64,000 nt of DNA from an uncultured Gammaproteobacteria bacterium (GTDB lineage: Bacteria; Patescibacteriota; Patescibacteriia; UBA11705; DATKZF01), in assembly GCA_964411255.1 (NCBI GenBank), contig CAYPKD010000007.1, positions 13,344-77,343 of the forward strand. Reading direction: 5' to 3'. The notes under the pieces were generated by a model. The model ran no database searches and was not told the DNA's origin. It saw only the letters and a list, made by a program, of their open reading frames with translations. Positions 8,806 to 51,184 of this stretch are shown here, piece after piece. Each line of letters starts with the position of its first letter. The first letter of the stretch is position 1. The translations under genes were made by a program, and so were the position numbers.

Positions 8806-8885
8806 ATCATAGATCATGGAACATGAATCATGGATCAAGGCAATTTTTTTGATCTATGATGTATGATACATGATACATGACTAAA
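8806..8885 (+). repeat. intergenic hairpin repeat, copy 1 (ATCATGGAACATGRATCAT family)
   Basis: 11-bp inverted repeat atcatagatca/tgatctatgat around an ATCATGG-rich core; a homologous copy follows rpmI. Confidence 0.55.
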
Positions 8886-9269
8886 GGGGATGATCGGCTT
8901 CGATGGGAATCAAAAATTATAAATGTGCGAATATGAGCTGCTAAATGCTCATTAAAACTTTGGCAATCAAATAAGTGCTAAAAATGTACTAGCAAAAGTA
9001 AAGAGCGCATTTGCTGCTCCAGCTTTTGCACCTGTTGTTGCTTAATAGCATACAACCGCTTATCTGCTGACACTCGATAGGTAGTATAAGCGCCATTATC
9101 GAGATAGGCTGTCTGGTGCCAGACTGGCAGTTGAAATTAACTTGGCTTTAGCTTATTAGGATTTTGTTTGTTTCTACCTTCTATGCTGAACTTATAAACA
9201 AACTACTTTTCGTAGAAGCATTTATAGTTTAATTTCCAGACGCGGGTTCAATTCCCGCCATCTCCACCA
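8886..9269 (+). ncRNA. ssrA: tmRNA (SsrA)
   Basis: 5' GGGGATGATCGGCTTCGATGGG pairs with 3' CATCTCC-ACCA to form an acceptor stem with a G3-U70 wobble; T-arm GCGGGTTCAATTCCCGC; internal tag ORF ends GCT TAA TAG; located right after smpB. Confidence 0.85.
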
Positions 9270-9336: not shown

Positions 9337-9888
9337 ATGAGAAGATATTATAAATTCGGCCGAAGGCCTAAAAAACAAAAAATAAAATACCCTACTAATG
9401 AAGGAATCAGAGCAAGAGACGTTCAGGTTATTAATGAAGAGGGAAAAATGCTGGGTGCTATGCGAACCTCAGAAGCGCTTGCAATTGCGAAAGAAAAAGG
9501 TTATGATCTAGTAGTTGTTTCTCCTAAAGCTCAGCCACCAGTTGCTAAATTTACAGATTATGGCAAAATGCAATATGAACAAGAAAAGCTTTTAAGGAAG
9601 CAAAAAAGCAAACAAAAAAATTTAGAGATGAAAGGAATACGTTTATCTGTCAAAATCAGTGAACATGATATGGAAATGAGGAAAAAACAAGCTGAAAAAT
9701 TCTTAGAGAAAGGACATAAGATAAAAGTTGAAATAATTTTACGAGGCCGCGAACACAAACATATACCCATAGCAAGAGAAGTTATTACAAAATTTATTAA
9801 TAATTTATCGATTAATACTGTTGTTGAACAGGAATTAAAAAAACAAGGGAGTAAATTGACGGCTGTAGTTGCAACAAAAGAATCATAA
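9337..9888 (+). CDS. infC: translation initiation factor IF-3
   Basis: Conserved IF-3 N- and C-domains; infC-rpmI-rplT gene order. Confidence 0.9.
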   Translation: MRRYYKFGRRPKKQKIKYPTNEGIRARDVQVINEEGKMLGAMRTSEALAIAKEKGYDLVVVSPKAQPPVAKFTDYGKMQYEQEKLLRKQKSKQKNLEMKGIRLSVKISEHDMEMRKKQAEKFLEKGHKIKVEIILRGREHKHIPIAREVITKFINNLSINTVVEQELKKQGSKLTAVVATKES

Positions 9889-10090: not shown

Positions 10091-10166
10091 TCATTGATCA
10101 TGGTCATGGAACATGGATCATATATCAAAACAATGCTTTTTGATCCATGATATGTGATTTAAAAAT
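10091..10166 (+). repeat. intergenic hairpin repeat, copy 2
   Basis: Shares gatcatggaacatggatcat ... tttttgatccatgat with the copy after smpB. Confidence 0.55.
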
Positions 10167-12546: not shown

Positions 12547-12586
12547 GTTAACGTCATTTTATTTATAAAACAAAATTTTGGTTGTT

Positions 12587-12666
12587 GGACCGGTGGTGTA
12601 GTTGGTTAATCCCGCACTAGAACTCCGTTCAGTGCGGGACAAGCACGCCGCACTGCCTGCCCCGCA
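12587..12666 (+). pseudogene. tRNA-Asp 5' pseudo-copy with hairpin insertion
   Basis: Shares upstream flank plus tRNA positions 1-21 with the intact gene, then a 30-nt hairpin (tcccgcact...agtgcggga), then cacgccgc (positions 22-31), then diverges. Confidence 0.5.
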
Positions 12667-12705
12667 TTTTTGATAATTTTTCTTACTTATAAAATTCTGG
12701 CTGTT

Positions 12706-12782
12706 GGACCGGTGGTGTAGTTGGTTAACACGCCGCCCTGTCACGGCGGAGATCGCGGGTTCGAGTCCCGTCCGGTCCGCCA
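12706..12782 (+). tRNA. tRNA-Asp (GTC)
   Basis: Cloverleaf checked by hand: acceptor GGACCGG/CCGGTCC, anticodon stem ccgcc/ggcgg, loop cuGUCac, T-arm GGTTCGAGTCC, encoded CCA. Confidence 0.9.
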
Positions 12783-12827
12783 GCCAGAATTTTATATTTT
12801 AAATCCTTTTTCATCAAATAGTGCGGG

Positions 12828-12870
12828 GTCACGGCGGAGATCGCGGATTCGAGTCCCGTCCGGTCCGCCA
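12828..12870 (+). pseudogene. tRNA-Asp 3' half pseudo-copy (positions 34-76) with duplicated downstream flank
   Basis: gtcacggcgg...ccgcca is identical to the intact gene except for one T-stem change, and is preceded by agtgcgggg complementary to the hairpin strand in the 5' pseudo-copy. Confidence 0.5.
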
Positions 12871-12959
12871 GCCAGAGTTTTGTTTTTTTGTACCTTTTTA
12901 AAAATGTTGTTATAATAAAAATACTTATATAATAATACTCTAATCAATAATAAAAACTT

Positions 12960-15072: not shown

Positions 15073-15190
15073 TTTCTACCTCCTTATACCTGGGTTGCCG
15101 CACTGGACACCACTCTCATCTCAACTTTTGTTCAGATGAAAGTGATGCCCTGAACAAATTTGCTAAGTTCAGGGAAAATGAAAGCCTTGA
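15073..15190 (-). promoter_or_regulatory. conserved leader element, copy 1 (hairpin CCCTGAAC...GTTCAGGG plus box TTGAGATGAGAGTGGTG)
   Basis: About 70 nt shared with the region upstream of the adjacent small gene. Confidence 0.5.
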
Positions 15191-15477: not shown

Positions 15478-15590
15478 ATGAATATTTCCACTACTCTCAT
15501 CTCAATTTGTATTAAGCTGAAGGTAGTGCCCTGAACCAAATGTTCAGTTCAGGGATTGTTGCGAAACAATATTAATTATCCAGCGCTCCT
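15478..15590 (-). promoter_or_regulatory. conserved leader element, copy 2
   Basis: Same hairpin stem and TTGAGATGAGAGTAGTG box as copy 1. Confidence 0.5.
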
Positions 15591-33825: not shown

Positions 33826-34923
33826 TTATTGGTTACTTCTAACAACGATGCTTTGACATACGCCTAATAAGCCTAAAGTTAAAATAAAAAAACTACCGCC
33901 AGCACTTAGTAAAGGTAAGGAAATCCCTGTCACTGGCACTAGACCCATATTCATGCCAATATTTACAAAAATATGCAGTACAAACAAACTGGTCACCCCT
34001 AGAACGAAAAACATGGCAAAATCATTTTCCGCCATTTGCGCCGCTCTGACCAGTCTCCAAAAAATAATTCCCCATAATCCAAGCACTAAAATTACGCCTA
34101 AAAGTCCAAGCTCCTCTGCTATTACAGCAAAAACAAAGTCCGTCTGGCTTTCCGGAATAAATCGCAGCTGACTCTGAGAGCCAAAGCCCAATCCCCTGCC
34201 TAAAACTTTTCCAGAACCAATCGCAATGGTTGATTGAGCCACATTGTAACCGCTGCCCAGAGGATCCCTGCCCGGATCTGTAAAAGTCAATATTCTTTCC
34301 TTCTGATAATCCTGTAAAACAACAAGCCAGGAAAAAAGCAAAACAGAAAGAACTATTAATACTAAAAATGTAATATACATTTTTTTAACTCCGGTTAGCA
34401 TTAAAACAATAAACCAAATTGCTAATAAAACCGCGGCTGATCCCAGGTCTGGCTGCATCAGCACCAATACCACAAAAATAACTGTACCCAAAAGACTGAT
34501 AAAAATATGTTTTGTTTGGTTGAATTGCTGATAACGGTTACTGAAAAATTTTGCTAAAAAAATAATCAGAGCGATCTTTGCAAATTCTACAGGCTGAAAT
34601 CCAAATGTTCCAATGGCAAACCATCCGGTAGTACCTCTGATATTTTTACCAAAAATTAGAACTAAAACCAGCAACACCAATGTAACAATATAAATCACTC
34701 TGCTATATGACCGAAAAAAATTATAATTTAGCAGACTAAAAAATAAAAAAACCACCAAGCCAATAATTACAAAAATTACTTGTCTGTTAAATCCTGACGC
34801 ATCACCCTCTTCATAGCTTAAATTAACGCTATAGATAGCGCTTAATCCTAAAATAATTAATAACAAAATAGCTGTAAATAAAATCCAGTCAAATTTTCTT
34901 AATTTTTGCAAAACTATGCTCAT
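33826..34923 (-). CDS. SEDS-family peptidoglycan glycosyltransferase (RodA/FtsW)
   Basis: 10-TM protein with conserved FtsW/RodA blocks (SQTDFVFAVIAEELGLLG, GISLPLLSAGGS). Confidence 0.85.
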   Translation of the reverse strand: MSIVLQKLRKFDWILFTAILLLIILGLSAIYSVNLSYEEGDASGFNRQVIFVIIGLVVFLFFSLLNYNFFRSYSRVIYIVTLVLLVLVLIFGKNIRGTTGWFAIGTFGFQPVEFAKIALIIFLAKFFSNRYQQFNQTKHIFISLLGTVIFVVLVLMQPDLGSAAVLLAIWFIVLMLTGVKKMYITFLVLIVLSVLLFSWLVVLQDYQKERILTFTDPGRDPLGSGYNVAQSTIAIGSGKVLGRGLGFGSQSQLRFIPESQTDFVFAVIAEELGLLGVILVLGLWGIIFWRLVRAAQMAENDFAMFFVLGVTSLFVLHIFVNIGMNMGLVPVTGISLPLLSAGGSFFILTLGLLGVCQSIVVRSNQ

Positions 34924-35054
34924 ACTTTAATTTCATCTTATTCTAAAATCTTTAATAAATCAATATAAAAATACCAGTGATGTTGGTGATTTTATAGTTG
35001 AGGTTTCGTTTGCTATAGCTTTTAATTTAAAACATCTTTACGTCAATAGTATCG

Positions 35055-35181
35055 GGGGTCTGGGGGGCTGATTGCCCCCTGAGCGATCTTGGAACTCAAT
35101 CATCACTTCGCATTTGAAGCCTCCCAGCGGTTTTTGGTTACTTTTTGGTGTCAAAAAGTAACTTGGCGCAAGCCAACATTG
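35055..35181 (+). repeat. about 130-nt conserved intergenic element, copy 1
   Basis: GGGGTCTGGGGGGCTGATTGCCC...CACTTCGCATTTGAAGCC...TACTTTTTGG-N4-CAAAAAGTAACTTGGCGCAAGCC...AACATTG; shares more than 80% identity with the copy at 47029. Confidence 0.65.
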
Positions 35182-35303
35182 AAAAAGGCAAAGCAGGCTT
35201 TTTGCCTGTATTGTAAAAGATTATTTTTTTATTAATAAAAAAATCCTAATTCATCAGGATTCCATATTTTTATTTTTTACTTTTTAATTTTTACTTTTTG
35301 ATT

Positions 35304-36296
35304 TTATTTCTGTTCTCCAATAACCTCTCCAAAACCTTTATATGAATCTGGATTTAAAATATCAACCTGAGGTAATACAGCCACCCTATTAATTGCAGGC
35401 AAAGATCCTGGCCAGTTCATAATCACTTCCCTTTCTTCTAAAGCATCCAGGCTTCTCAAATGATATGTGTTCATTGCCCTTAAATTTTGTCCAGAATAAA
35501 GTAAAATTATAACATCAATATTCCAAAAATTCTGCGGCGAATTATTTTCAATTGTAAACTTTACCTGATTTATAGGATTCTCTCCTTCAATTCCAGTTTG
35601 TCTGGCTGGCAAATATAAAATGTCTGTTACTTCAAATTGCATTAGCTGCTCTTTTAATTCATTATAATCCGGCACCTTTTTCCATTTCAGATCATCAATT
35701 ACTAAATCTGCGCTCAGGCTACCTGTTCTCTCTTCATTTAAATTAACTAAATACATTGTCTCCCCTGGAAGCACATAGCTTGTTTCTAAATCTGTAGATG
35801 CGCCGCCAAAATCAAAATGATACATTAATTCTTCTACATACCATTTATCATTAGGATTAGTAACCGTAGTATATAAATCATAATTTTCTCCAGCCCTAAT
35901 GACCTTTACGTCATCTATTAAAATATTCTGCGGTGTACTGACCCGATTAATGTAATCCCAGTTCAATGATACAGTCCGGGGCGCATACAACTGGCGGTTT
36001 GCTGAATAACTTATTAAATAATGATCCAAAAGCCCGTATGTCCCATAAATCAAAAAAGCACCAGCAATTACAATTGCAGTTACTGTTGCCATTTGTTTAA
36101 CAGTTTGTCTATGGCTAAGCCACCAATAACCAAATTCTAATTCAGGAGCTGCTTTGATCTCCTTTGGTTTTGGAGCCTCAGCCTTCTGTTCTTTGGATTT
36201 CTTGTCGTCCGACTTGTCCGCCGTAGCTTTAGCGAAGGACGATTCAGTTTTTTCGTCTTTAGGTTTTTGATTTCCAATCTGAAATGCCATACGCAT
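35304..36296 (-). CDS. membrane-anchored protein with K-rich N-terminus, hypothetical
   Basis: Disordered basic N-terminus, one TM, then an extracytoplasmic domain of about 240 aa. Confidence 0.5.
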   Translation of the reverse strand: MRMAFQIGNQKPKDEKTESSFAKATADKSDDKKSKEQKAEAPKPKEIKAAPELEFGYWWLSHRQTVKQMATVTAIVIAGAFLIYGTYGLLDHYLISYSANRQLYAPRTVSLNWDYINRVSTPQNILIDDVKVIRAGENYDLYTTVTNPNDKWYVEELMYHFDFGGASTDLETSYVLPGETMYLVNLNEERTGSLSADLVIDDLKWKKVPDYNELKEQLMQFEVTDILYLPARQTGIEGENPINQVKFTIENNSPQNFWNIDVIILLYSGQNLRAMNTYHLRSLDALEEREVIMNWPGSLPAINRVAVLPQVDILNPDSYKGFGEVIGEQK

Positions 36297-42205: not shown

Positions 42206-42248
42206 ACCAAAAGACCGGGTAATACCCAGTCTTTTTTAATTATATTTA

Positions 42249-46894: not shown

Positions 46895-47028
46895 TGAAAT
46901 CCTCCTTTTTCATCAATTAAAATTAGCATAAACAAATAATTGTGTCAATATCTGTAATATCTGATAAAAGTATAGACAAAATATTTTTTCGTAATTTATT
47001 TCAGGACATATTTTCATTTATAGCAACT

Positions 47029-47181
47029 GGGGTCTGGGGGGCTGATTGCCCATAACAAGAAAGTTAAACATAATTGACACTTCGCATTTGAAGCCCCCCA
47101 ATGGTTTTTGCCTACTTTTTGGCGCCAAAAAGTAACTTGGCGCAAGCCCAGAACCGTATGGTTCTGGGCAAGCCAACATTG
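47029..47181 (+). repeat. conserved intergenic element, copy 2 (with 25-nt hairpin insertion)
   Basis: Collinear with the copy at 35055-35181; the extra cccagaaccgtatggttctggg hairpin is inserted before AACATTG. Confidence 0.65.
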
Positions 47182-47312
47182 CAAGGACTTATTAGTTTTG
47201 TCAATCCTAATAAAATAATATATTTGTAATCCCCTGATAAAAGTACTTTCAAAACCCTTATTCGTAATATGGTCTTGCAAGGCCCTTTTGCTTTTGTCAG
47301 TTTTGACTCCAA

Positions 47313-47341
47313 TAAAAAACTGCAATGAATGTCATTGCAGT
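47313..47341 (-). terminator. cassette 1 terminator
   Basis: actgcaatga/tcattgcagt stem followed by a U6 run on the minus strand, directly after the stop. Confidence 0.65.
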
Positions 47342-47343
47342 AG

Positions 47344-47553
47344 TTATGCAGCGATTGAAACCGCTGATACTTTTGCCAGAGCTATTGCTTCTAGCGCTTT
47401 CCTATGAATTTCACTTCCTGGATTAGCTGTATGAGCAATTTCTGCCCATTCTTCATCAGTCAAATTGCTAAAAAATGAAGAATCCAGCCTGTGCCCAAAA
47501 AGTTTTACTGTAGTACTTATACCAAAAATTCTTCTAGCATTTTCAATGGTCAT
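47344..47553 (-). CDS. cassette small protein 1 (HEAT-like W-x-EIA repeat, C-terminal Ala-Ala)
   Basis: AAGGAGGA RBS; EEWAEIAHTANPGSEIHRKALEAIA repeat; ends ...SIAA. Confidence 0.5.
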   Translation of the reverse strand: MTIENARRIFGISTTVKLFGHRLDSSFFSNLTDEEWAEIAHTANPGSEIHRKALEAIALAKVSAVSIAA

Positions 47554-47623
47554 TTAATCCTCCTTATTCAGAATTTTCTGGCTTTAAAAAAATAAAAAAC
47601 TCTTTTCGAGTCTTTCTATAATA

Positions 47624-47652
47624 ATTATATCAAATATACAGGCTCATGTCAA
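47624..47652 (-). promoter_or_regulatory. cassette 1 promoter (TTGACA-17-TATAAT, minus strand)
   Basis: Consensus hexamers; followed by the leader hairpin GACUC-gaaaa-GAGUU plus U-tract. Confidence 0.6.
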
Positions 47653-47718
47653 GCATTTGTACACATTTATAACCCTGAATTGCAAAACCCTTTAATTTTG
47701 GCAGCTTTGAGATGAAAT

Positions 47719-47747
47719 AAAAAAGCTGCAATGAATGTCATTACAGC
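47719..47747 (-). terminator. cassette 2 terminator
   Basis: gctgcaatga/tcattacagc stem plus U-run. Confidence 0.6.
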
Positions 47748-48107
47748 TTAAGCAGCTATTGCCTTGCTTTGGCTCGTATCAACTTTTGCCTTGCTTCGGC
47801 TCATTTTCTGCAAACGTCTTAAGTACTTAGAAACAAGTCTCCAATAACGCATTGAGTATTCATCATTGCCAGGCGGACATGATATCATAATACCATTTAT
47901 CGCCTTGGCCAGTAAAAAACTGTTACCGATTTGATAAGCATTTTTAGCCATTTCAGCCCACTTTGAAACATGGACTGCAGCCATTGCTTCTCTTGAATCC
48001 ACAGGGATATCAACTATTCGGCTATCAGTTTTAATTCTTACTGTATCTCTGCGCCTGCGCTGAGGCTTTTTAGCAGAAATATTTTTAGGACAAACCTCAA
48101 AAGTCAC
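47748..48107 (-). CDS. cassette small protein 2 (basic; KWAEMA motif; C-terminal Ala-Ala)
   Basis: GTG start with AAGGAG RBS downstream of the promoter (the track ORF start at 48200 lies inside the promoter); ends ...AIAA. Confidence 0.5.
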   Translation of the reverse strand: MTFEVCPKNISAKKPQRRRRDTVRIKTDSRIVDIPVDSREAMAAVHVSKWAEMAKNAYQIGNSFLLAKAINGIMISCPPGNDEYSMRYWRLVSKYLRRLQKMSRSKAKVDTSQSKAIAA

Positions 48108-48172
48108 AAAGTAACTCCTTTCCAAGTAGCTTTTAAAACGAAAAAAGCCCGTGAACTGAGCTTCTATAAACA

Positions 48173-48200
48173 TTATAGCAAATAAAATAAAATTTGTCAA
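48173..48200 (-). promoter_or_regulatory. cassette 2 promoter (TTGACA-16-TATAAT, minus strand)
   Basis: Followed by the leader hairpin AGCUC-aguuca-CGGGCU plus UUUUUUCGUUUU. Confidence 0.6.
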
Positions 48201-48254
48201 GTATTTTTATCAACATGCTTGAATAAAATTGTTGTTCTATCCTCACCTTTATAT

Positions 48255-48284
48255 TAAAAAAGCTGCAAATATTTGATTTGCAGC
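48255..48284 (-). terminator. cassette 3 terminator
   Basis: gctgcaaat/atttgcagc 9-bp stem plus U6 run, directly after the stop. Confidence 0.7.
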
Positions 48285-48638
48285 CTATGCAGCCATACGA
48301 TTGGAAAAAAGCCCTCTAAGGGCCTGCATATGTTTTGGTTCACATGCACGCATTGTCACTTCTTTCACAGCTCTTCTTCGAATTGGACTTTCTGGAGCAG
48401 CACATTCAGCTATTTCCAGCCATTCTGAAAAACTATCTGCAAGAATTGTCAGTTGTTCCAGGGCCCTTGCTTTGATTGGACTATCTGGAGCAGCGCATCC
48501 AGCAATTTCTTTCCATTGGGAAAAAGTTAATCTGTCAAAGAATTCCTCAGAGAGGCTTGATGCACAAATTAGTACAGCAAAACCTATTCCGTAGCGCTTA
48601 AAATAGTAATAGAAGTTTTTTTCCGGTTCAAAGCTCAT
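48285..48638 (-). CDS. cassette small protein 3 (two HEAT-like W-x-EIA repeats; C-terminal Ala-Ala)
   Basis: AAGGAGG RBS and ATG at 48638 (MSFEPEKN...); internal 75-nt tandem duplication; ends ...RMAA. Confidence 0.5.
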   Translation of the reverse strand: MSFEPEKNFYYYFKRYGIGFAVLICASSLSEEFFDRLTFSQWKEIAGCAAPDSPIKARALEQLTILADSFSEWLEIAECAAPESPIRRRAVKEVTMRACEPKHMQALRGLFSNRMAA

Positions 48639-48710
48639 TTTTACCTCCTTGGATATGAGGTTTGTGTCTTTAAAAAACACAAAAAGCCCTTGAACTGAGC
48701 TTCTGTAAAC

Positions 48711-48739
48711 ATTATAGCAAATTAAATGCAATTTGTCAA
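48711..48739 (-). promoter_or_regulatory. cassette 3 promoter (TTGACA-17-TATAAT, minus strand)
   Basis: Consensus; the same conserved leader follows. Confidence 0.6.
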
Positions 48740-48794
48740 ATATTCTTATTAATATTTTTGAATAAAATTGTTGTTCTGATTCAATTAATTTATT

Positions 48795-48823
48795 AAAAAA
48801 GCTGCAAAAATTTGATTTGCAGC
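48795..48823 (-). terminator. cassette 4 terminator
   Basis: gctgcaaa/tttgcagc stem plus U6 run. Confidence 0.65.
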
Positions 48824-49087
48824 TTATGCAGCTTGTGCATTCCAGTCATTTAGCCTTTTCAGTATTATTCGTATTTTGGACCAAGTTTCTTTGTCTATTG
48901 ACCCTTTTATATGAACTAAGTCACTGGCTGCCTGCTGAACTTCTTTTTTATTTTGGGAATTTAGACCAGTTTTAATCCATTTCTCAATCTTATTATTATT
49001 ATTTTCCTGTACTTGCTGTAGCTTTACTGGCCTTAGCCTAGGTTTACTACTTCTGCGAGGCAAAAAAGTACCTAAACGCGCAACCAT
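48824..49087 (-). CDS. cassette small protein 4 (basic N-terminus; C-terminal Ala-Ala)
   Basis: GGAAGGAG RBS; ends ...AQAA; shares promoter, leader and terminator architecture with cassettes 1-3. Confidence 0.5.
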   Translation of the reverse strand: MVARLGTFLPRRSSKPRLRPVKLQQVQENNNNKIEKWIKTGLNSQNKKEVQQAASDLVHIKGSIDKETWSKIRIILKRLNDWNAQAA

Positions 49088-49143
49088 TGCTTTCTCCTTC
49101 CCATTTAAAAAGAAAAAAGCCCGTGAACTGAGCTTCTGTAACT

Positions 49144-49172
49144 ATTGTATCAAATATTTGTTCATTTGTCAA
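49144..49172 (-). promoter_or_regulatory. cassette 4 promoter (TTGACA-17-TACAAT, minus strand)
   Basis: Near-consensus; the conserved leader follows. Confidence 0.6.
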
Positions 49173-49297
49173 GTAAAATTTCACATACAATATAAATAAT
49201 AAAGCAATCACCAGCTTTTCCACTTCCCTGCAATAACAAGATTTGATAAAATAGTTGTACTTATTAGGAGGGTTTTGAAAAAAATAATAACAATTTT

Positions 49298-51184
49298 ATG
49301 GAAAATGAAAAAAATATAATGCAAAGACCTTCCTGGGACCAATACTTTTTAAAATTAGCAATGCTTGTTGCAGAACGATCAACCTGCAGGCGGCATAATG
49401 TTGGTGCTATAATTGTAAAAAATAAACACGTTTTATCAACTGGCTATAATGGCGCTCCTGCTAAAACAAAAGACTGCCTTGAGCTTGGTTGTTTACGAGA
49501 TGAGTTAAAAATTCCTTCAGGCACGCAGCAGCAGGTCTGCCGTGCAGTGCATGCTGAACAAAATGCAATAATTCAGGCAGCTTATCACGGAATAAATCTT
49601 GAGGGGGCAACAATGTATTGTACGCACACGCCCTGTATTATTTGCGCAAAAATGATAGTTAATGCTGGTATAAAACAAATAATTTCATACCGCGCTTATA
49701 ATGATGAGGACTTTATCAGATTATTCTTAGAGGCAGGAATAAAATTTGAAAAGCATGAAAAACCAGATGCCCAAATCACAGAATTAGATCGGGTTCAACT
49801 TTATGACACAAAACCAAAAAATGAAAGTGAAACAGAAAAAACTGAACAGCCTCCAGAGAGACAACAAGAGATGAAAAAATCAGACAGTATGGCCGATGTT
49901 TATATATATGATCAGTATAACCCAGAAGACAATGCAATGATGCAGGCTCTATATTCTCGAAGCCCGCAAAGCGTAACAGAACATGTGAAAAAAGTTGAAC
50001 AAACCGGATCAGGCAAATTTATGGAAAAATTTTATGTTGGCTATGGCCATCAGAGTATTGCAGATTGCGGCAGTACAACAATATTTACAGAACAGGTCAG
50101 CACTTTGGCTGACAAAGCGATTCAGGACTGGCCTTTATACAGCGGGCAAGAAACCAGCACTCGCTATGTAGACATGTCAAAGCAACCAATTGTTGATCCA
50201 GTGAAAACGCCTGAGTCAAAACAAATTTTAGATGCCTGGATGGACTTTTATGTAAAAAGCCAGAATAAAGTCAATCAACATATTAAAAGTCTTTATCCCA
50301 AAAAACCTGATGAAAAAGAAGGTGTCTATAACAAGGCTGTAGAAGCCAGGACATTTGACATTATGCGTGGCTTTTTGCCAGCTGGAATTACCACACAGCT
50401 AAGCTGGCATACAAATCTTCGTCAGGCTTGGGATAAATTAGCTTTGCTTCGTTATAATCCCCTGCCTGAAACACGGGAAATAGCAGAAAATATGATTACC
50501 AGGCTAAGAGAAAAATATCCAAACAGCTTTTGCCACGAGGAATATAAAGATCAGGAAGGTTTTCGAAAATCATCAACACAAAAATATAATTTCTATAATC
50601 CGCAATTTGCCAGTTCTGATTTTAAGATGTCCACCTCAATTGATCCTGAAAAATTATCACAGTATCAGGATATAATTGATTCACGTCCGCAAAAAACAAA
50701 CCTGCCGCACTTTTTAACTGAACTGGGATTAATTACATTTGATTTTATTTTAGACTTTGGATCATTTCGAGATGTTCAAAGGCACAGAAATGGTGTTTGC
50801 CGAATGCCACTACTAACTACTAATTTTGGATTTAATGAGTGGTATCTGAGCCAGCTGCCAAATGATATCAGGCAGGAAGCTGAGCAATTAATTGCTGATC
50901 AAAAAATAAAAATAGCAAATTTGCCAACCGTTGCAGAAATCAAACAATATTATATTTCCTTAGGATTTAATATGCCTTGCCGGATAACTTATGGCCTGCC
51001 AGCTACAATTTATGTAATTGAACTTCGATCAGGCAAGCCAGTTCATCCGACTTTAAGAAAAATTGCGCACAAAATGCATTATGCTCTGCTTGAGAAATTC
51101 CCAAATCTAGTACTCCACTCTGATTTGGAAAAAAGCGACTGGGATATTCGGCGCGGCTTGCAAAGTATTACAGAAAAAAAATAA
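49298..51184 (+). CDS. dCMP deaminase (ComEB-type) fused to a ThyX-like (flavin-dependent thymidylate synthase-like) domain
   Basis: N-terminal CDA zinc motifs HAEQNAI...PCIICAKM; the roughly 430-aa C-terminal region has ThyX-like SGQETSTRY and QRHRNG motifs. Confidence 0.6.
   Translation: MENEKNIMQRPSWDQYFLKLAMLVAERSTCRRHNVGAIIVKNKHVLSTGYNGAPAKTKDCLELGCLRDELKIPSGTQQQVCRAVHAEQNAIIQAAYHGINLEGATMYCTHTPCIICAKMIVNAGIKQIISYRAYNDEDFIRLFLEAGIKFEKHEKPDAQITELDRVQLYDTKPKNESETEKTEQPPERQQEMKKSDSMADVYIYDQYNPEDNAMMQALYSRSPQSVTEHVKKVEQTGSGKFMEKFYVGYGHQSIADCGSTTIFTEQVSTLADKAIQDWPLYSGQETSTRYVDMSKQPIVDPVKTPESKQILDAWMDFYVKSQNKVNQHIKSLYPKKPDEKEGVYNKAVEARTFDIMRGFLPAGITTQLSWHTNLRQAWDKLALLRYNPLPETREIAENMITRLREKYPNSFCHEEYKDQEGFRKSSTQKYNFYNPQFASSDFKMSTSIDPEKLSQYQDIIDSRPQKTNLPHFLTELGLITFDFILDFGSFRDVQRHRNGVCRMPLLTTNFGFNEWYLSQLPNDIRQEAEQLIADQKIKIANLPTVAEIKQYYISLGFNMPCRITYGLPATIYVIELRSGKPVHPTLRKIAHKMHYALLEKFPNLVLHSDLEKSDWDIRRGLQSITEKK

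Follow-up and report, generated by a model that had tools for sequence, protein, structure and literature searches.

The BOX elements of Streptococcus pneumoniae and the ERIC/IRU elements of enterobacteria are intergenic, noncoding, multicopy sequences of ∼100 to 350 nt whose positions vary between strains. They encode no protein, are predicted to fold stably, and have a modular or mosaic makeup with optional internal blocks. MITEs such as Correia/NEMIS (Neisseria) and RUP are non-autonomous and insertion polymorphic, carry terminator- or promoter-like signals, and break assemblies. Class C (IIC) bacterial group II introns insert immediately after the stem-loops of intrinsic terminators. CPR/Patescibacteria have small genomes that, by the usual account, contain few repeats and little mobile DNA. 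A literature search found no interspersed repeat or structured RNA family described in this group; one paper that it returned concerns DGRs in multicellular bacteria.

Here, we describe a repeat family recognized from copies in a 64,000-nt stretch of DNA, which we refer to as the window; its members are designated c1 to c9 (Table 1). Compared by description, the element shares with BOX and ERIC/IRU its intergenic, multicopy, mosaic, position-variable, and noncoding character. However, it belongs to the phylum Patescibacteria, has no sequence relationship with those repeats, and possesses a core without inverted-repeat symmetry; its copies lie at the distal edge of terminator U-tracts, antisense to the flanking genes, and compensatory substitutions maintain three separate helices. 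Like a MITE, it is non-autonomous, polymorphic between close relatives, endowed with terminator-like signals, and prone to break assemblies, but of the MITE hallmarks of terminal inverted repeats and fixed-length target-site duplications, matching terminal hairpins occur only in c8, the longest copy, and the flanking direct repeats are ambiguous. Conserved hairpins, compensatory pairing, lack of classical inverted repeats, and orientation bias are features in common with REP/BIME-RAYT systems and IS200/IS605-derived PATEs. Nonetheless, REPs measure 20 to 40 nt, whereas the core of this element spans ∼130 nt with three different helices, and IS200/IS605 ends share similar hairpins, whereas those of the core (GGGGGC-TGATT-GCCCCC and TTGGC-GCAA-GCCAA) differ. 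The element was set apart from both groups on account of these unlike end hairpins and because no Y1 transposase/TnpB gene adjoins its copies. Its likeness to class C introns is limited to the target preference by terminators; it has no intron domains, reverse transcriptase ORF, or Rfam intron match, and it lies antisense to the terminated gene. Finally, multicopy sRNA families (Qrr, LhrC, csRNAs) also comprise several near-identical structured RNA genes per genome with their own terminators, but these occupy conserved loci, whereas the present copies differ in occupancy at each locus that could be compared, and several of them are without end modules. The family is previously undescribed; it resembles BOX/ERIC/MITE-type interspersed repeats in kind and is unusual among them in its antisense insertion at terminator edges and in helices kept by compensatory change.

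Copies of the element in the window and in related sequence

A preliminary description of the window had reported two similar copies in the same orientation, and both were recovered as homologous plus-strand copies at 35055-35181 (c1) and 47029-47181 (c2). A repeat search aligned them over 82 nt at 85% identity (35093-35174/47067-47148) and over 57 nt at 79% identity (35021-35077/46995-47051), with a constant offset of 11974 in the two segments, and BLAST yielded 76.6% identity over 154 nt (E = 2e-28). The window contains two occurrences of an 18-mer of the element, where 0.12 would be expected. The extent originally assigned to the element (∼130 to 155 nt) was too short, as similarity reaches ∼35 nt further upstream in both copies. 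Copy 2 does carry an inserted hairpin, as reported, but the insertion measures 26 nt (47149-47174) instead of 22 nt and consists of a 9- to 10-bp perfect hairpin (GCCCAGAACC/GGTTCTGGGC) plus a 7-nt duplication of GCAAGCC. The two copies are indeed noncoding: they do not have their overlapping ORFs in common, and some of the indels between them have lengths that are not divisible by three. No conserved small ORF is common to the copies on either strand.

Scanning metagenomes with the pattern GTCTGGGGGGCTGATTGCCC retrieved c3, c4, and c5, all of them at contig ends of a sister lineage whose RodA is 90% identical to that of the window genome and whose orthologous proteins are 75 to 90% identical. 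The diverged copy c6 (type B) has a different sequence and the same three-domain fold as the type A copies. In ∼260 kb of related sequence searched, the family amounts to eight full or near-full copies and one 26-nt stub; the window genome holds four in ∼83 kb, all on the plus strand (roughly one per 20 kb), and the sister lineage holds the rest. Copies c8 and c9 are ∼95% identical over ∼300 nt. A covariance model (R1) retrieved exactly the known copies with scores of 79 to 152 bits (c1, 147 bits, E = 4e-42; c2, 133.5 bits); the family is larger than the initial pair. Run over ∼260 kb of sequence in all, the covariance model and nhmmer found no further copies in the window and none in ∼68 kb from relatives with 72 to 73% identical RodA; within the ∼260 kb of related sequence examined, the family is known from two lineages only. 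A scan of genome contigs with the 18-mer CACTTCGCATTTGAAGCC gave 23 matches, all in unrelated coding sequence of GC-richer genomes, as judged from their flanks. This 18-mer was too strict, because the sister-lineage copies read CGCTTCGC/TGCTTCGC at that place. Regarding the host, RodA of the window (33826-34923, minus strand) has its best named matches in Patescibacteria, including Falkowbacteria and Kuenenbacteria.

Contigs break inside copies at least seven times (L028, L030, L032, L039, L041, L043, and L048, the last being the source contig of the window itself), as would happen with a repeat that exceeds the length an assembler can bridge. The same sequences were independently assembled in ENA, JGI, and Logan data; the window corresponds to ENA contig ERZ27256770 k141_1578239, and the organism also occurs in the JGI and Logan assemblies. 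Their common orientation and 12-kb spacing could suggest that the two window copies bound a single island, as att sites or otherwise, or that they are an assembly artifact, but this is practically untenable given the independent assemblies, the further copies at other loci, and the housekeeping genes between c1 and c2 (gyrB, lysS, secE, nusG, rplK, and rplA), from most of which the preliminary description had already argued against att sites. Integron attC/attI sites and island att sites were likewise rejected on the basis of the intervening core genes, the many loci, and the lack of an integrase among the ORFs checked.

Database searches did not assign the element to any known family. Rfam 15 identified only tmRNA and tRNA (tRNA-Asp) in the whole window at the gathering threshold, and permissive scans of c1, c2, c8, and c6 on both strands returned subthreshold noise (best E values of about 0.07 to 1). 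Neither a family of just two copies without conservation in relatives nor a match to a known Rfam family, the outcomes named beforehand as counting against a new element, was found. Four patterns run against viral contigs, and the c1 unit compared by blastn with phages and plasmids, produced chance matches only. No transposase, integrase/recombinase, or reverse transcriptase was detected by Pfam among 10 nearby ORFs checked, no RAYT, TnpA, TnpB, or IS110-type gene adjoins any copy, and no autonomous partner element was seen in ∼83 kb of the window genome.

The window contains other repeats. tRNA-Asp (12706-12782) lies amid partial direct self-duplicates (12572-12899; 12572-12609 versus 12691-12728, 95%; 12740-12811 versus 12828-12899, 89%), which could be scars left by integration at the tRNA or degenerate tandem copies of it. 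A direct repeat of 37 nt (81%; 8814-8850 and 10104-10140) brackets tmRNA (8886-9269), infC (9337-9888, IF3 by Pfam), and a 73-amino-acid (aa) ORF; it could represent an old att pair or else a leader or operator common to both sites. A 51-nt direct repeat (80%, 381 nt apart; 15108-15158 and 15489-15539) amid short ORFs is unrelated to the element.

Table 1. Copies, modules, and insertion sites of the repeat family
Feature	Location	Strand	Description	Basis
c1	window 35055	+	window genome	repeat search
c2	window 47029	+	window genome	repeat search
c3	contig L032		sister lineage	metagenome scan
c4	contig L039		sister lineage	metagenome scan
c5	contig L041		sister lineage	metagenome scan
c6 (type B)	L039 2446-2592		sister lineage	nhmmer
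c7 (26-nt type B stub)	L039, just upstream of c4		sister lineage	
c8	L042 18264-18396	+	window genome, 6.5 kb past window end	
c9	L042 20326-20507	+	window genome, 8.5 kb past window end	
c1 full unit	34972..35236	+		alignment with c8 and c9
c1 T0 terminator-like hairpin	34964..34996		TATAAAAATACCA/TGGTGATTTTATA	homologous to T0 of c8 and c3
c1 structured core	35054..35181	+	GGGGG...AACATTG	repeat search, covariance model R1
c1 helix P1	35060..35127	+	CTGGGGGGCT (35060-35069) pairs with AGCCTCCCAG (35118-35127)	fold
c1 hairpin P3	35137..35162	+	GTTACTTTTTG/CAAAAAGTAAC, loop GTGT	
c1 hairpin P4	35163..35176	+	TTGGC-GCAA-GCCAA, GNRA-type loop	
c1 3' module	35194..35221	+	hairpin CAGGC/GCCTG, then tail GTATTGTAAAAGAT (tail motif, 35208-35221)	
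Terminator adjoining c1	35237..35262		A-tract and hairpin AATCCT/AGGATT, intrinsic terminator of the 330-aa gene (35304-36296, minus), convergent	
c2 whole inserted unit	46961..47233	+		direct repeats, alignments
c2 structured core	47029..47181	+		fold, covariance model R1
c2 helix P1	47034-47043/47092-47101	+		
c2 hairpin P3	47113-47134	+		
c2 hairpin P4	47137-47176	+		
c2 P4-extension module	47149..47174	+	CAGAACCGTATGGTTCTGGGCAAGCC	same module in c9
Terminator at c2 right junction	47314..47340		A-tract and hairpin CTGCAATGAATGTCATTGCAG of the 69-aa gene, convergent	
c1 site	filled, window genome; empty, sister L032 (RodA 90% identical)		gap 123 nt	
c8 site	filled, window genome; empty, sister L051		gap 99 nt	
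c9 site	filled, window genome; empty, sister L051		gap 80 nt	
c2 site	filled, window genome; empty, sister L052		gap 98 nt	
c3 site	filled, sister lineage; empty, window 42206-42248		gap 43 nt	

Fold and covariation of the core

The ∼130-nt core has a GC content of 0.47 to 0.56 (overall 50%, in a genome of 35% GC), compared with 0.34 to 0.39 for the window. Its predicted plus-strand fold consists of a long-range helix (P1; CUGGGGGGCU/AGCCYCCCAG), a U-rich linker, an 11-bp hairpin (P3), and a hairpin with a GCAA loop (P4; UUGGC-GCAA-GCCAA). P1 surrounds small hairpins and a variable stretch of ∼26 nt; in c1, the helix includes one G.U pair, and the enclosed hairpins are GATTGC/GCGATC and CTTC/GAAG. 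Using P1, P3, and P4 as defined above, we evaluated covariation in an alignment of eight copies. Within this structure, 94% of the cells are paired, as opposed to 38 to 62% in a control with the partners slid by 1 to 3 columns, and the covariation score reached 0.133 versus 0.056 in shuffles, none of 500 attaining the observed value. Five pairs in total are changed on both sides, including three in P3, the base of which reads GUUAC/GUAAC or CCUAC/GUAGG. P1 is 93.5% paired, with a basal pair of C-G (four copies) or U-A (two copies), and P4 pairs as UUGGC/GCCAA in c1 and as UCGGC/GCCGA in c8 and c9. Compensatory substitutions thus exceed the controls, as in structured ncRNAs generally, in a set of eight sequences with few independent events, since most of the changes follow a single split of c8/c9 from the rest. 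Type B keeps P1 and P3 with a different sequence, one A-U pair having been lost from both P3 strands, and the GCAA loop of P4 is invariant in the type A copies where readable. These data and the additional copies sustain the initial proposal of a multicopy, structured, noncoding element. However, the TGT/CGC difference that had been taken as covarying maps to the apical loop of P3 (GUGU versus GCGC) and is therefore not a compensatory stem change; the genuine ones are located elsewhere and became visible only once further copies were added.

DNA hairpins would yield the same covariation signal as RNA helices. Wobble pairs occur mostly on the plus strand, namely, in P1 of c1, in P4 of c6, in the long-range helix GGUAUUGCC/GGCGAUGCC of c8 and c9, and in a strain variant of the c2 extension. 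In turn, c2 is a hybrid with two C.A mismatches that correspond to G.U pairs on the minus strand. On balance, the wobble pairs, whose counts are not decisive, the GNRA loop, and the c8 terminator lean toward a plus-strand RNA.

The P3 region also bears on the preliminary suggestion of a regulatory DNA site. If the 22-bp perfect palindrome TACTTTTTGGCGCCAAAAAGTA were a protein-binding site, it would serve as the operator of a dimeric regulator, and it is indeed perfect through its center in c2 and c5. Nevertheless, c1, c4, and c8 have mutations in the center, and in c3 and c9 a 24-nt insert divides it. In type B, the hairpin persists even though one base pair has been lost in a compensatory manner, and the surrounding 100 nt are conserved as well. 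We give this reading very little credence, mainly because the inserts interrupt the center of the palindrome.

The variable stretch within P1 raises the further possibility of an orphan scaffold or guide RNA belonging to an RNA-guided mobile system, such as the TnpB/IscB omega RNAs on PATE-like elements or the IS110 bridge RNA, with the constant helices binding a protein encoded elsewhere and the variable P1 segment specifying the target. A constant scaffold with an internal segment of ∼26 nt that varies, site- and orientation-specific insertion beside terminators, and a core without terminal inverted repeats are all compatible with this arrangement. It is highly unlikely, however, as no gene for such a protein adjoins any copy, no Rfam omega RNA or HEARO match was obtained, and a search of the available sequence for complements of the variable segments gave no significant match. 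These segments still share motifs and hence look like a relaxed linker instead of programmed guides.

Mosaic units inserted at the edge of terminators

The core is embedded in a mosaic full unit of ∼260 to 350 nt bounded by terminator-like hairpins. The c1 unit opens with a degenerate T0 hairpin and an AT-rich upstream region, continues through the core and the 3' hairpin into the GTATTGTAAAAGAT tail, and stops at ATTAAT, immediately ahead of the A-tract of the neighboring terminator. The T0 hairpin, the AT-rich region, and the 3' hairpin followed by GT(A/T)TTGTAAAAGAT are common to c1, c8, and c9; this tail motif is also present in type B, and an upstream TTTATTT... region is common to both types. 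Copy c8 terminates in a strong plus-strand terminator (CCCCAGC-UAC-GCUGGGG followed by U6) whose hairpin resembles T0. At full length, its terminal hairpins match each other, with 28-nt arms that are 75% complementary and are themselves terminator-like palindromes, whereas the ends of the core (GGGGTCTGGGG... and ...GCCAACATTG) are not inverted repeats. The left arm is missing from c9, the right arm from c1, and another end module from c3. Because each of these copies lacks a different end module, we regard the family as mosaic, and the differing missing ends fit poorly with simple cut-and-paste transposition that needs both ends. In addition, most of the putative promoter region is absent from c3 and c5, and the strong terminator is absent from c1.

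Two optional extensions add to this mosaicism, one at the tip of P3 (c3 and c9) and one at the tip of P4 (c2 and c9). Their occurrence in different copies and combinations indicates that they are recurrent modules, not one-off accidents. The c2 unit is followed by a short tandem partial duplicate without core (47234-47300), evident from the direct repeats 46961-46995/47234-47268 and 47179-47203/47275-47299. When free copies of the extension hairpins were sought, just one was found, a perfect 22-nt palindrome (CCTGCCCTTCGCGAAGGGCAGG; L042 18202-18223) located just upstream of c8, ∼8 kb past the window end. Its halves (CTGCCCT...GAAGGGCA) also make up the P3-extension module in c3 and c9, which hints at a second, smaller hairpin unit that might be insertable or exchangeable. 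The first 26 nt of type B (TCGTGGGGTCTGGGGTGGCCACTCAG) lie 55 nt upstream of c4 (L039 4690-4775). This stub could have arisen by recombination or by the nesting of a type A copy in type B; the contig terminates short of the full arrangement.

Orthologous sites of the window genome and the sister lineage differ in occupancy in all five testable cases (Table 1). This property, invisible from the window alone, is the most informative one of the family. Alignments of filled and empty sites place the insertions between the terminator U-tract of one gene and the promoter of the next, and show copies that were gained recently at different intergenic sites in the two sister lineages. The right junction reads '...AT|AAAAAA-hairpin' beside the terminator of a convergent gene in 5/5 copies with a visible 3' flank (c1, c2, c6, c8, and c9). 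Next to c2, where the junction was set by empty-site comparison, a minus-strand terminator is predicted at 47341..47319. Copies of the window genome always point against the flanking genes; most genes of the window are encoded on the minus strand, so the four plus-strand copies oppose the prevailing gene orientation. Over most of the window, the plus strand has a negative GC skew. Copies c1, c8, and c9 are flanked, within the terminator A-tracts, by direct repeats that are rich in A (ATAAAAA-like) and of low complexity; these repeats may be due to chance and are indistinguishable from the target composition of these tracts.

Copies c8 and c9 are surrounded by tandem genes for hypothetical proteins of 614, 188, 303, and 318 aa (L042 17128-21050/L047 6960-12318) without Pfam matches. 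The 318-aa protein is 24% identical to the 303-aa protein (E = 1e-20) and more weakly related to the 614-aa protein (25% over 77 aa). A search of 5.8 billion database proteins gave just two homologues of the 303-aa protein. Co-duplication with the flanking genes was considered and rejected: the flanking 318-, 303-, and 614-aa proteins are paralogs of only 24% identity, and the two copies are far more alike than these neighbors, indicating that the repeat was not simply carried along.

Beyond the c2 site, a cassette island (47344-49223, minus strand) encodes four small ORFs of 69, 150, 148, and 87 aa. Conserved upstream blocks of ∼104 nt recur at 48135-48238, 48674-48777, and 49107-49210, and each ORF closes with ...AA-stop, after which comes a nearly identical terminator hairpin (47715-47756, 48252-48293, and 48791-48832). 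The 69- and 148-aa products share repeats at 38 to 44% identity, and the Ala-Ala C termini of the cassette products resemble ssrA-type degradation tags. Relatives have 3 to 4 cassette-type genes of different lengths in the same place between rplA and thyX. The adjacent 628-aa dCMP/cytidine deaminase-ThyX fusion (49298-51184; PF00383 and PF02511) is kept in the relatives examined.

Gene context speaks directly to a possible role as a cis-regulatory leader, i.e., a riboswitch or attenuator acting on the minus strand upstream of rodA and of a 107-aa gene. Both window copies lie ∼130 nt upstream of a minus-strand start codon, and an alternative pairing, GGGGGC/GCCCCC, competes with P1 in the predicted fold. 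The context nevertheless makes this role scarcely tenable. The downstream genes (rodA and the 107-, 318-, and 188-aa genes) are unrelated, promoter-like sites, plus the T0 terminator in c8, intervene between element and genes, c3 and c4 lie downstream of genes instead, the downstream genes are convergent in 5/5 cases, and orthologous genes in relatives do without the element.

Nature of the repeat and its significance

The preliminary description had left the choice between a MITE-like repeat and a structured ncRNA; the data suggest that the element is both mobile and structured. With somewhat better than even confidence, we consider it an interspersed repeat of a Patescibacteria (CPR) genome, non-autonomous and specific to its lineage, which probably forms a structured plus-strand RNA. 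We favor a repeat because every testable locus is polymorphic, several copies are truncated and mosaic, and site choice is stereotyped. The core would have to fold, which would place its helices under selection, and the folded form would most likely be a plus-strand RNA of ∼130 to 235 nt, possibly single-stranded DNA. In our view, the core is very likely also expressed as RNA, and such an RNA would be predicted to start near GGGGGUCU and to end at the c8 terminator. Its folding may serve either propagation of the element itself by a factor encoded elsewhere or a small-RNA role. Candidate routes of spread include a transposase acting in trans, recombination between the terminator-like ends, and an RNA intermediate.

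The family may be viewed alternatively as host small-RNA genes, each copy being its own plus-strand transcription unit with an AT-rich promoter region, a structured RNA of ∼130 to 235 nt, and an intrinsic terminator, and spreading by duplication or gene conversion, not by transposition. This layout agrees with a GC-rich core in an AT-rich genome, helices conserved through compensatory changes and apical expansions, the plus-strand GCAA tetraloop and wobble pairs, the strong terminator at the end of c8, the insulation of units by terminators on both sides, and the upstream TTTATTT... region of both types. We deem it unlikely, if quite conceivable, because the 5/5 sites that differ between sister lineages would be unusual for host sRNA genes, some copies lack the putative promoter region or the strong terminator, and the family is absent from the relatives with 72 to 73% identical RodA. 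Furthermore, neither hexamer scans nor manual alignment of the upstream regions placed a consistent -35/-10 pair on either strand.

A mobile small-RNA gene, in which the structured RNA would itself be the transposing unit or specificity factor, would account for the constant three-helix scaffold, the variable segment, the strictly antisense orientation, and insertion at terminator edges in a streamlined CPR genome. We rate it as distinctly unlikely. Such a gene might produce an orphan RNA of the guide or bridge type, on which a recombinase or nuclease with a gene elsewhere would rely; alternatively, its RNA might be converted back into DNA beside terminators.

The family shows recent intergenic insertions with a precise, repeated site and orientation in a small CPR genome, and its copies explain why the assemblies of these organisms fragment where they do. 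They also provide a marker for strain-level typing, and the covariance model could be run across CPR genomes. The finding is of modest importance, adding a repeat or small-RNA family not described before to a phylum that has received little study. Still, the family offers a tractable case of terminator-adjacent structured repeats, be they insulators, antisense RNAs, or purely selfish DNA.
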